Shown here: in pieces, positions 38,597-40,483 of the stretch
How positions within the stretch are numbered: the first letter of the stretch is position 1
Layout: the number at the start of each line of letters is the position of its first letter
Source of the DNA: a phage
Strand: one strand, 5' to 3'
Length of the DNA: 64,000 nucleotides
Sequence record: PX104380.1
Position numbers and translations under genes: made by a program
The notes under the pieces: generated by a model
Database searches by the model: none
What the model was told of the DNA's origin: nothing
The model's input: the letters and a program-made list of their open reading frames with translations, nothing else

Positions 38597-38626
38597 ATAG
38601 TACCATAGAAGAACAGGGATGTAAAC
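38597..38626 (-). promoter_or_regulatory. T4 early-type promoter
   Basis: Minus-strand GTTTACATCCCTGTTCTTCTATGGTACTAT + conserved 22-mer. Confidence 0.6.
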
Positions 38627-38760
38627 AGTTTTGTGAAAAATTTTTTAAAAAGTTTTGGGGAATTCTAGGGCAAGGAGGGGAAATTAAAGGATAGGATAAT
38701 ATATTATAAAGGGTAGAAACTAAATGATGCCTAGAGAGGCCTGGAAAGGCCTAGATACCA

Positions 38761-38788
38761 AAAAGCCCCAACCTTTCGGTCGGGGCTA
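38761..38788 (-). terminator. strong rho-independent terminator (10-bp stem, GAAA tetraloop, U5) ending the tRNA/small-RNA transcript
   Basis: Minus-strand AGCCCCGACC-GAAA-GGTTGGGGCU followed by UUUUU. Confidence 0.7.
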
Positions 38789-38789
38789 A

Positions 38790-39096
38790 GCCTTGCGGCA
38801 ACCTTGTCGGGGTTCCACCTGCTAAGGCAAGTGTTTGTACGAAACGCCGGGATTCGAACCCGGTTATTAAGCAGTTGACGCTACTCAATATTTTTAAAAG
38901 GCCATATCTCGACCATATCCGAACGTTCCGTCAAAAACGCTACTCGGCTTACGGCAAAGATATTTCCTCGAATCGATAATTCGGTGCGCCGTTTCTGCTG
39001 TGATGTAAGAGGGCATCAATAAACGCAAGGATTATTAACGCAATTCCTTACTCAGGGAACATCAGTCCGACGACTTACCGGTAGCGACCCGGTTTC
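38790..39096 (-). ncRNA. G+C-rich structured RNA region with a tRNA-like element (acceptor stem + T-arm; about 92 nt unit ending near 38841); likely homolog of T4 small stable RNAs
   Basis: GGTTCGAATCCCGG T-arm and 7-bp acceptor pairing CGGAACG/CGTTTCG; GC content far above flanking DNA; no credible anticodon arm found. Confidence 0.4.
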
Positions 39097-39447
39097 TTAA
39101 TATTCTTTTAAAGCATAAATCTGTTTACGGCGTTCACGCCATAAATCAATTGCTTCATACGCGGATTCAACATTTCGAATTGGACGGCATTTATATAAAG
39201 ATTTGTGATTTTGATATTGCGTAGATAACGGAATTTTATCTAAAAGGTCTTTACGTTCAAAGTATTCGTAACCATCTAAGCCAAATGAACGATTTTTGAG
39301 AAATTGCCAATGACCAAATTCGTTTTGAATATAAATATAATCCGCGTGTTGATAAAGTAAATTAATTTCACGAAATGAGATATGTTTTTCATATTCATTG
39401 AAGTAAAATGTTAAATCATGAACTACTAAATAAACATTACCTTTCAT
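39097..39447 (-). CDS. hypothetical protein within tRNA region (116 aa)
   Basis: Minus-strand ORF between tRNA-Arg and small RNA region. Confidence 0.5.
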   Translation of the reverse strand: MKGNVYLVVHDLTFYFNEYEKHISFREINLLYQHADYIYIQNEFGHWQFLKNRSFGLDGYEYFERKDLLDKIPLSTQYQNHKSLYKCRPIRNVESAYEAIDLWRERRKQIYALKEY

Positions 39448-39465
39448 ATTTTCCTCACTTATAAT

Positions 39466-39541
39466 TGGTCGAGGCAGTAGGGATCGAACCTACGACCTAG
39501 GACTTAGAAGGTCCTTGCTCTTCCTTCTGAGCTATGCCCCG
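39466..39541 (-). tRNA. tRNA-Arg (anticodon UCU)
   Basis: Manual fold: acceptor CGGGGCA/TGCCTCG, anticodon loop CTTCTAA, T-arm GGTTCGATCC, encoded CCA. Confidence 0.85.
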
Positions 39542-39545
39542 TAAT

Positions 39546-39621
39546 TGGGGTGACCGATGGGAGTCGAACCCATGACTACGAGAATCACAATCTCGAGTTC
39601 TACCAACTGAACTACGGCCAC
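39546..39621 (-). tRNA. tRNA-His (anticodon GUG)
   Basis: Manual fold: acceptor GTGGCCG/CGGTCAC, discriminator C73, anticodon loop TTGTGAT. Confidence 0.8.
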
Positions 39622-39735
39622 ATTAATACCTACTCCAACAATCAAGATGTCTTCACACGAAATTAAGAGAAGAGTGATCAGTTCAACCCCTATAATCGCG
39701 TCAAGTAGATATTAATGTGACAGTTGTCACAAATT

Positions 39736-39810
39736 TGGCGGACGTGATAGGATTCGAACCTATAACCAATCGCTTAACAGGCGATCGCTCTGCCATTGAG
39801 CTACACATCC
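39736..39810 (-). tRNA. tRNA-Asn (anticodon GUU)
   Basis: Manual fold: acceptor GGATGTG/CACGTCC, anticodon stem ATCGC/GCGAT, loop CTGTTAA. Confidence 0.8.
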
Positions 39811-39814
39811 AAAT

Positions 39815-39901
39815 TGGTGGGGAGTGGTGGAGTCGAACCACCCGAGTCGCAATGACAATGAATTTACAGTCCACACCGCTACCTCTACGGGATAACTCCC
39901 C
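39815..39901 (-). tRNA. tRNA-Tyr (anticodon GUA), long variable arm
   Basis: Manual fold: acceptor GGGGAGT/ACTCCCC, anticodon loop CTGTAAA, 87 nt. Confidence 0.7.
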
Positions 39902-39910
39902 AAATTAATT

Positions 39911-39985
39911 TGGTGGCCCTGGGTGGAATTGAACCACCATCTGGCGATTATGAGTCGCTTGCTTGAACCTTCCAGCTACAGGGCC
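39911..39985 (-). tRNA. tRNA with CAU anticodon (Ile-lysidine type as in T4, or Met)
   Basis: Manual fold: acceptor GGCCCTG/CAGGGCC, anticodon loop CTCATAA. Confidence 0.75.
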
Positions 39986-39986
39986 T

Positions 39987-40062
39987 TGGTGCTGATTAAC
40001 GGAATCGAACCGCCGACCTTCTCATTACAAGTGAGTTGCTCTACCTACTGAGCTAAATCAGC
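39987..40062 (-). tRNA. tRNA-Thr (anticodon UGU)
   Basis: Manual fold: acceptor GCTGATT/AATCAGC, anticodon loop CTTGTAA. Confidence 0.8.
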
Positions 40063-40067
40063 AAAAC

Positions 40068-40157
40068 TGGCGGAGGTGATAGGATTCGAACCTATGAATC
40101 GCCGGAGCGACTGCCGGTTTTCAAGACCGGTGCATTCAACCACTCTGCCACACCTCC
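40068..40157 (-). tRNA. tRNA-Ser (anticodon UGA), long variable arm
   Basis: Manual fold: acceptor GGAGGTG/CACCTCC, anticodon stem CCGGT/ACCGG, loop CTTGAAA, 90 nt. Confidence 0.8.
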
Positions 40158-40159
40158 AG

Positions 40160-40233
40160 TCTCCATACAAGGATTTGAACCTTGGACCTCCTGATCCCAA
40201 ATCAGGCGCTCTACCAAACTGAGCTACACGGAG
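40160..40233 (-). tRNA. tRNA-Pro (anticodon UGG), 3' CCA not encoded
   Basis: Manual fold: acceptor CTCCGTG/TATGGAG, anticodon stem CCTGA/TCAGG, loop TTTGGGA. Confidence 0.8.
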
Positions 40234-40243
40234 TAAATTAAAT

Positions 40244-40317
<74 letters not shown>

Positions 40318-40322
40318 AAATT

Positions 40323-40409
40323 TGGTGCGAGAAGTGGGACTCGAACCCACAAGGAAATCATTCCGCAGCATTTTAAGTGCTGTGCCTTTACCAATTTGAC
40401 CATTCTCGC
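40323..40409 (-). tRNA. tRNA-Leu (anticodon UAA), long variable arm
   Basis: Manual fold: acceptor GCGAGAA/TTCTCGC, anticodon stem CAGCA/TGCTG, loop CTTAAAA. Confidence 0.85.
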
Positions 40410-40410
40410 G

Positions 40411-40483
40411 CTGGGAATAAAGGACTCGAACCTTTGCATCCTGGAATCAAAATCCAGTGCCTTACCAACTTGGCTAATTCCCA
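40411..40483 (-). tRNA. tRNA-Gln (anticodon UUG), 3' CCA not encoded
   Basis: Manual fold: acceptor TGGGAAT/ATTCCCA (U1-A72), anticodon stem CTGGA/TCCAG, loop TTTTGAT. Confidence 0.85.

Follow-up and report, generated by a model that had tools for sequence, protein, structure and literature searches.

A G+C-rich segment behind a phage tRNA cluster matches the T4 small stable RNAs rnaD and rnaC: comparative support for a tRNA-like fold of rnaC

Introduction

The question raised by this locus is what a G+C-rich segment next to a phage tRNA cluster encodes when it contains a tRNA-like element that is not a canonical tRNA. The segment occupies positions 38790-39096 of sequence record PX104380.1, phage DNA of 64,000 nt, the whole of which is referred to below as the window. 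An earlier description (the original prediction) had offered a counterpart of the T4 small stable RNAs and a degenerate tRNA among the possible answers. The analysis reported here indicates that the segment almost certainly represents the copies of the T4 RNAs rnaD and rnaC that this Tequatrovirus-type phage carries at the far end of its tRNA operon.

In T4, rnaC and rnaD have been known as small stable RNAs since the 1970s. The element itself is already known, and its presence in a T4-like genome is ordinary; the analysis corrects the acceptor partner and adds a predicted structure supported by covariation. Northern blots and RNA-seq identified RNAC and RNAD of T4 as late, stably accumulating RNAs (PMC9697503), and their function was termed unknown in papers of 2010, 2022 (PMC9697503) and 2025 (PMC12685909). 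No functional study of rnaC or rnaD was found in a literature search that did not include the original papers of the 1970s-1980s and the 2003 T4 genome review.

Identity of the segment

Eleven tRNA genes (Gln, Leu, Gly, Pro, Ser, Thr, Met, Tyr, Asn, His and Arg) were located by ARAGORN and Rfam at 39466-40483, all on the minus strand. The flagged segment is indeed G+C-rich, as had been noted originally: its G+C content, determined in 150-nt windows, is 0.45-0.50, approximately equal to that of the tRNA cluster, compared to 0.25-0.37 in the flanks. Its predicted position downstream of tRNA-Arg stands with two amendments: it has to be read on the minus strand, and an open reading frame (ORF) of 116 amino acids (39447..39097) intervenes. 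The order of units on the minus strand is tRNA-Arg, the 116-aa ORF, rnaD, rnaC, a trailer and an intrinsic terminator, and the flagged stretch includes ~48 nt of the 3' trailer besides rnaD and rnaC. Thus, rnaC shares the strand of the tRNAs and lies between the cluster and its terminator at 38787..38764.

The segment was found by megablast in 761 phage records, nearly all of which are from T-even-type phages infecting Escherichia, Shigella, Yersinia, Salmonella, Citrobacter and Enterobacter; across searches 761 to 813 records hold the region. The T4 reference sequence (NC_000866) labels its counterpart of the segment, located directly after tRNA-Arg, as rnaD ('small, stable RNA; species 2 RNA', 119 nt) and then rnaC ('species 1 RNA', 139 nt), and the older T4 record X03016 holds both RNA features and a potential terminator just 3' of species 1 RNA. 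When the window was aligned with the T4 region 3' of tRNA-Arg, rnaD and rnaC matched almost base for base; 137 of the 139 nucleotides of rnaC were identical (2 mismatches), and rnaD was near-identical. This alignment with NC_000866 and X03016 bears out the first of the alternatives offered by the original prediction, the T4 small stable RNAs.

By the NC_000866 boundaries the rnaC orthologue spans 38838..38976 on the minus strand (139 nt), whereas X03016 limits species 1 to positions 2-138 of this RNA (137 nt), equivalent to 38975..38839. The rnaD orthologue, delimited by alignment to the T4 rnaD annotation, occupies 38983..39100 of the same strand (~118 nt); its exact 5' end is uncertain as it overlaps the stop codon of the upstream ORF. 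The window and T4 copies of rnaC (T4s001 in T4) agree in their strand relative to the tRNAs, in being the last RNA before the terminator, in their location 3' of rnaD and in their predicted fold. They differ by the two substitutions, and in the window an ORF parts tRNA-Arg from rnaD, which abut in T4. With T4 rnaD (T4s002) the window copy shares the type of the central cassette and the position directly 5' of rnaC. As it is preceded by the stop codon of the ORF and not by the CCA of tRNA-Arg, it deviates from T4 in the first 4-5 nt; in addition, it has a 1-nt deletion and ends in ACCG as opposed to ACCA in T4.

Predicted secondary structure of rnaC

The rnaC part of the segment folds with a z-score of -4.55 relative to shuffled sequences, which is beyond chance. 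For comparative analysis 24 distinct rnaC sequences were assembled from at least six phage genera. They derived from annotated genomes (T4; RB69, Mosigvirus; fHe-Yen9-01, Tegunavirus; Q7622 and PEi26, Kanagawavirus; KaAlpha and KKP_3262, Karamvirus; EI, Marfavirus) and from IMG/VR viral contigs obtained in pattern scans. A covariance model was built from the homologues, and base pairs were counted on the resulting alignment. Metagenome contigs were used for covariance-model scoring only, were kept outside the 24 and matched sequence types already seen. The model (R1) scored the window rnaC at 159 bits (E = 1.9e-36), a match by construction since the window copy was in the training set, and the T4 copy at 159.7 bits.

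For the whole fold, 92.1% of the cells were paired over the 24 sequences, compared to 37-44% when the 3' partners were slid by 1-3 columns. Changes on both sides were found in 30 of the 54 pairs, against 4-10 in the slid controls, and none of 500 shuffles attained the observed pairing values. The many G·U pairs would be C·A on the opposite strand, therefore selection acts on the minus-strand RNA. Comparative alignment, one of the checks proposed with the original prediction, thus found the rnaC fold conserved across the 24 homologues, and the covariation makes it very probable that rnaC has a cloverleaf-like secondary structure.

The acceptor stem of the predicted fold consists of 7 bp formed from the true 5' and 3' ends of the 139-nt RNA. 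Its 5' strand (38969..38975, minus strand; positions 2-8, CGAUUCG) pairs with positions 131-137 (38840..38846, minus strand), which are followed by an invariant U138 and then by N-C-A-A. The pair A4-U135 alternates with G-C (9 and 15 sequences, respectively), and the tandem mismatch U5·U134/U6·U133, present in 22 of the 24 sequences, is replaced by U-A/C-G in the fHe-Yen9-01 lineage. The acceptor 3' strand adjoins the T-arm with no nucleotides between them, as in tRNA. The T-arm, CCGGG-UUCGAAU-CCCGG (CCGGGTTCGAATCCCGG; 38847..38863, minus strand; positions 114-130), is 100% paired, with two co-varying pairs. The stack of acceptor and T-stems is constant at 7+5 bp, without indels, across the homologues.

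The D-arm position is taken by hairpin 1 (38899..38968, minus strand; positions 9-78, 70 nt), in which 17 of 26 pairs change on both sides. It contains four helical segments; its 3-bp base and an internal loop, in which a GG at positions 74-75 is conserved, carry a 60-nt extension. Two very different sequence versions of hairpin 1 occur, and they share one architecture. A conserved single-stranded A-rich linker, UUUAAAAA (38891..38898, minus strand; positions 79-86), connects it to hairpin 2; the AAAAU block of the linker is nearly invariant and extends into U87, and the length of the linker is constant within 1-2 nt. Hairpin 2, at the anticodon-arm position (38865..38890, minus strand; positions 87-112), has a 10-bp stem with changes on both sides in 8 of the 10 pairs. 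The order around the junction is acceptor, 0 nt, hairpin 1, 8-nt linker, hairpin 2, 1 nt, T-arm, 0 nt, acceptor.

Loop 1, UUGACG (38929..38934, minus strand; positions 43-48), is complementary to loop 2, CGUCAA (38875..38880, minus strand; positions 97-102), in all 24 sequences. Two positions of this 100% paired loop-loop helix co-vary, and two independent compensatory variants were found: UUGGCG/CGCCAA in the EI lineage and UUGAUG/CAUCAA in the fHe-Yen9-01 lineage. These observations can be modelled as a cloverleaf whose D-arm is replaced and whose anticodon loop would bind the tip of the hairpin 1 extension as a kissing loop. Alternatively, the loops could pair between molecules, yielding rnaC homodimers or larger assemblies like the kissing-loop self-assembling large RNAs that are associated with phages and tRNAs. 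The perfect complementarity of the loops in 24 of 24 homologues is compatible with this as well, and hairpin 1 (~26 bp) is so much longer than hairpin 2 (10 bp) that closure within one molecule would need a sharp bend. On the other hand, the length of the homologues stays at 141-144 nt despite near-complete replacement of the hairpin 1 sequence, and this constancy, together with the tightly kept linker, fits loop-loop closure within one molecule. Pairing between molecules is considered distinctly unlikely.

A further tertiary contact may be indicated by the Q7622 lineage (L003, L023), where the T-loop is UGCAUGC in place of UUCGAAU (U55 to G) and G74 is changed to C. As a lead from a single lineage event, this hints at a tRNA-like contact between a substitute of the D-loop and the T-loop. 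The conserved GG at 74-75, next to the basal stem of 3 bp, may be a substitute for the D-loop. A mutual-information scan for additional tertiary pairs in rnaC gave nothing reliable, the signal being dominated by the split between the hairpin 1 sequence types.

tRNA and protein-coding interpretations

The perfect T-arm of the original prediction is real and can be read directly from the sequence (CCGGGTTCGAATCCCGG at 38863..38847, minus strand). The acceptor pairing attached to it was right in that ACGGAACG (38931..38924) can pair with CGTTTCGT (38846..38839), but it is not the natural acceptor across homologues. In the RNA, ACGGAACG (positions 46-53) and CGUUUCGU (131-138) form an 8-bp pairing, which delimits the unit of ~92-93 nt. 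This pairing is 87% pairable over the 24 sequences, variation being tolerated via wobble pairs or mismatches, and it shows no compensatory change in any of them; the ~92-nt unit had to be abandoned in favour of the 139-nt rnaC. The ACGGAACG strand belongs to the 3' half of the apical stem and to the loop of hairpin 1, itself supported by covariation. The earlier pairing looks plausible because positions 47-53 (CGGAACG) resemble the true 5' acceptor strand (positions 2-8).

The wording 'tRNA-like but non-canonical' is also a fair description. The proposal of a degenerate tRNA is not supported. ARAGORN called no tRNA or tmRNA in the flagged region and was also negative on rnaC of T4, Q7622, fHe-Yen9-01, KaAlpha, PEi26 and EI. 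With the Rfam gathering threshold tRNAs were the sole matches in the whole window, and the tRNA model RF00005 had no match in the region. At E-values up to 10, a search of 38600-39500 yielded noise only (tRNA-Sec with 16.6 bits versus a threshold of 47, isrK, RT-6 and similar). Thus, the Rfam/Infernal search recommended at the outset matched no known family to the rnaC/rnaD region. Weak matches of 14-26 bits obtained with the covariance model were rejected as ordinary tRNAs fitting the acceptor/T-arm part of the model.

A tRNA gene, genuine or degenerate, that spans ~92-96 nt and bears a long extra arm, the anatomy of the original prediction and of some genome annotations, could account for the T-arm, for the 87% pairable 8-bp helix, for the weak tRNA-Sec match and for the 95-96-nt 'tRNA' that ARAGORN reports in two homologues. 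These two calls disagree on the anticodon (Met in one, Phe in the other), the Rfam score is far under threshold, and ARAGORN is negative here and in the six phages listed above. Furthermore, the helix required by such a tRNA lacks compensatory changes, whereas hairpin 1, the kissing loop and the acceptor stem at the 5' end all covary. A tRNA gene of this kind is therefore highly improbable. The place of an anticodon arm with a 5-bp stem and a 7-nt loop is taken in rnaC by hairpin 2, whose stem of 10 bp carries a 6-nt loop paired to loop 1. Taking into account the missing 7-nt anticodon loop and the negative results with ARAGORN and the Rfam tRNA model, rnaC does not appear to be a decoder.

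The absence of a convincing ORF, noted originally, was confirmed: there are only two TTG-started ORFs of 44-45 aa, and no frame is open across the homologues. Many GenBank records place one or two 'hypothetical protein' coding sequences (CDSs) on the stretch. Nevertheless, it is extremely improbable that the short ORFs 38751..38888 and 38894..39028 (minus strand) encode small proteins, as both start with TTG, every frame is interrupted by stops among the homologues, indels of 1-2 nt are tolerated, and the substitutions are compensatory in RNA helices and lack a period of three.

rnaD

For rnaD, 13 distinct homologues from Tequatrovirus, Mosigvirus and Dhakavirus were compared. Their ends are invariant over ~45 nt at the 5' side and 20 nt at the 3' side; the central ~50 nt, in the window a hairpin cassette at 39003..39052 (minus strand), are swapped among at least four unrelated versions, all of them hairpin-forming (including those in L010, L011 and L038-L041). 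The RNAalifold consensus comprises one basal and two inner helices besides a hairpin at the 5' end. The 5' hairpin, ACCGG-GUCGCUA-CCGGU (39077..39093, minus strand), is invariant in 13 of 13 homologues. Compensatory change was seen in 4 of the 23 predicted pairs, the invariant ends carrying no covariation information, and rnaD alone did not fold significantly as a single sequence (z = -1.63).

In Kanagawavirus, Karamvirus, Tegunavirus and Marfavirus blastn matched only the rnaC part, and a tRNA or an ORF lies directly upstream of rnaC. No rnaD was found beside rnaC in these genera in the adjoining sequence, to which the comparison was confined, no rnaD model being run there. The reverse situation exists in Dhakavirus (L039-L041, ~positions 430-640): rnaD, trailer and terminator are kept, rnaC is cleanly absent with the junction GCGCACCGA|ACACTTGCC, and the rnaC covariance model had no match in these loci. 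The two RNAs appear to be independent modules. In L039 and L041 an extra rnaD-like unit of ~70 nt (a hairpin and a GCCGUCG...CGGCGCAAC helix) was observed between tRNA-Arg and rnaD.

In the model that we propose, rnaD is a separate module that combines a small 5' hairpin with a long one whose ends are invariant and whose apical cassette can be exchanged; it would probably serve as a sequence-specific binding scaffold. A different explanation is that rnaD, and possibly rnaC, are base-pairing regulatory RNAs, the rnaD cassette serving as seed and the invariant ends as a protein-binding scaffold. The arrangement of 45 invariant nucleotides at the 5' and 20 at the 3' side around at least four unrelated cassettes would agree with this. 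So would the single-nucleotide polymorphism (SNP) in the rnaD region that was identical in all lines of a T4-like phage evolved on E. coli ECOR34 (PMC12685909). However, exact complementarity of rnaD, rnaC and the trailer to the rest of the 64-kb window over 11-14 nt was at chance level, with no complementarity of at least 13 nt and with 11- and 12-mers as frequent as expected by chance. No homologue was detected by blastn in 5,426 E. coli genomes, a search in which short seeds are below the sensitivity. In addition, the variable cassette is mostly base-paired within itself, and the loops of rnaC co-vary with each other, not with an outside target. A regulatory role by base pairing is thus rather unlikely.

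Genomic setting and proposed processing of rnaC

Outside the T4 group rnaC lies inside tRNA arrays, 5-9 nt from the flanking tRNA (Karamvirus, Kanagawavirus, Tegunavirus and Marfavirus). The order is Trp|rnaC|Gly in KaAlpha, KKP_3262 and L037, Met|rnaC in Q7622 and EI, and rnaC|Trp in fHe-Yen9-01 and L013. These tRNA-like spacers suggest tRNA-type processing. The nucleotide preceding C2 is U in 19 of the 24 rnaC sequences. Most lineages have ACA as the N-C-A after the invariant U138; in fHe-Yen9-01 it is UCA, and the EI lineage encodes a genuine CCA. Published species 1 RNA is reportedly 140 nt long, a length that, set against the 137 nt of X03016, would be consistent with post-transcriptional addition of CCA.

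A 12-bp (7+5) acceptor/T stack is the minimal substrate of RNase P. In the mechanism that we envisage, rnaC would be transcribed together with the tRNAs, and RNase P would free its 5' end because of this stack; the 3' end would arise either through 3' trimming as is usual for tRNAs or through RNase P cleavage at the next tRNA, and the closed compact fold would give the RNA tRNA-like stability. We judge that tRNA-type processing of rnaC is somewhat more probable than its absence.

It could be argued that the region acts only in cis, as processing punctuation and as a 3' protective or termination module of the tRNA operon, with the released RNAs being by-products. Consistent with this, in T4-type phages the region occupies the 3' end of the operon, immediately ahead of the terminator, an RNase P cut at rnaC would also set the 3' end of rnaD, and rnaC is dispensable in Dhakavirus (see above). 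In Karamvirus, however, rnaC is in the middle of an array where adjoining tRNAs already supply processing sites; the conservation of exact length and of non-helical nucleotides (the AAAAU linker, CGAGGA and the loops) goes beyond what a spacer needs, and the RNAs accumulate as stable species. A role in cis alone therefore seems improbable.

Relation to known tRNA-like RNAs

Features shared by rnaC with canonical tRNA (RF00005) are the end-to-end acceptor stem of 7 bp continuous with the 5-bp T-stem, the GUUCGAAUC T-loop, the four-way junction and the place in tRNA arrays with tRNA-like spacers. In contrast to tRNA, rnaC has no 7-nt anticodon loop and no D-loop, contains a 70-nt hairpin for the D-arm, an 8-nt linker where tRNA has 1 nt and a tandem U·U in the acceptor stem, ends in most lineages in a 3' tail ACA rather than CCA, and fails both tRNA detectors.

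The likeness to tmRNA, also a substrate of RNase P, is that the acceptor and T-arm half is kept and the lower half is replaced by a large structured insert closed by tertiary pairing. Unlike tmRNA, rnaC is only 139 nt long, possesses neither a tag reading frame nor the G3·U70 alanine identity pair, and in most lineages has no encoded CCA; a search of the window for tmRNA with ARAGORN was negative. YrlA (a bacterial Y-RNA-like RNA), the tRNA-like structure (TLS) of the TYMV type and mascRNA are non-coding RNAs which resemble tRNA in part of their shape and on which tRNA enzymes act. YrlA ends in a Ro-binding stem, not in an acceptor stem, and the TLS is a cis-acting element at the 3' end of a viral genome. 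Rfam families of these types had no match in 38600-39500 at E-values up to 10.

Possible function of rnaC

Mature rnaC would act in trans as a tRNA-shaped decoy or titrator, not as a decoder. Its target would be a host or phage factor that recognizes the acceptor/T-arm half of tRNAs. This decoy function is a tentative proposal, possible but less than probable. Taken together, the identity with T4 rnaD and rnaC, the tRNA-mimic fold, the processing, the decoy role and the rnaD scaffold form the explanation that we find best, and as a whole it is moderately probable.

Several observations weigh against it. The T4 annotations (NC_000866 and X03016) differ by 1-2 nt on the ends of rnaC. The 24 rnaC sequences represent only ~6-7 lineages, therefore the independent covariation events are far fewer than the covarying cells. 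The remodelled T-loop of Q7622 means that a canonical T-loop is not strictly required, and the pairing 46-53/131-138, given its 87% pairability, may be a minor alternative conformer. RNase P processing and CCA addition were inferred from anatomy and annotation boundaries. Finally, there are Dhakavirus phages without rnaC, therefore the RNA is dispensable.

A more speculative extension would place rnaC in an uncurated class of tRNA mimics, locked by a kissing loop and processed like tRNA, which would serve as anti-defence decoys or as self-assembling particles, the rnaD hairpin tuning host specificity. Such tuning would fit the convergent SNP in the rnaD region on a new E. coli host (see above), but the extension as a whole has a low probability. 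In a search for host homologues, a 21-base structural pattern matched none of 185,579 species genomes of bacteria and archaea. More distant relatives were sought in five pattern scans, four over viral and one over metagenome contigs; apart from a few chance matches to coding sequences (L009, L032, L034, L035), these gave only T4-like contigs whose sequence types had already been seen.

Terminator region and neighbouring sequences

The unit is closed by a strong intrinsic terminator, AGCCCCGACC-GAAA-GGUUGGGGCU followed by a U-run (38757..38787, minus strand). Between it and rnaC is a 3' trailer with small hairpins (38788..38837, minus strand), which is conserved together with rnaD and the terminator, also in phages without rnaC. 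Trailer and terminator fold with z = -3.41, beyond chance. The sequence GAACCCCGACAAGG in the trailer nearly repeats the terminator 5' strand (AGCCCCGACCGAAAGG), and the two could compete for the terminator 3' strand.

The 116-aa ORF between tRNA-Arg and rnaD (39097-39447, minus strand) belongs to PHROG 3355 (unknown function) and has no Pfam match; searches of the neighbouring ORFs against Pfam and PHROGs gave families of unknown function only. ORFs matched by size and position are found at the same site in slur04 and RB69 (ORF150c). In T4, where tRNA-Arg abuts rnaD, the homing endonuclease gene segB is upstream of tRNA-Arg instead. The closest relatives of the region are slur04-type genomes. 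In these genomes (slur04, L001, 1822-2410) a 474-nt CDS is inserted just past the terminator, and the terminator hairpin recurs as a second copy flanking the insert; the window has one copy and no insert. This suggests gain or loss of genes via recombination between terminator repeats.

Within the cluster, the 114-nt spacer between tRNA-Asn and tRNA-His (39622-39735, minus strand) folds with z = -4.36 relative to shuffles. Its conservation extends to 356 phage records, among them those of Klebsiella and Enterobacter phages with ~82% identity, and it was found just upstream of tRNA-His in five of the five loci examined. RNAalifold predicted a 14-bp closing stem and inner hairpins with five compensatory pairs. 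The spacer is unannotated, has no Rfam match and contains UUGACG, the hexamer of rnaC loop 1, possibly by chance. The spacer is a candidate for a third small structured RNA in these tRNA clusters.

Annotation and significance

Most of the ~800 phage records, as exemplified by the homologous loci L027 and L028 and by the megablast-matched records, show one or two hypothetical proteins in the region, have no annotation there or call part of it a tRNA; one deposited genome annotates rnaC as tRNA-Phe. Labels of rnaC/rnaD are carried by only a few records. Rfam has no family for these RNAs, and a curated covariance model would correct the widespread mis-annotation.

The supported fold gives precise targets for mutagenesis: the acceptor stem formed by the true ends, the kissing loop with its two natural compensatory variants, the invariant A-rich linker, and the invariant ends of rnaD around the swappable cassette. 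The natural absence of rnaC in Dhakavirus offers a ready comparison.

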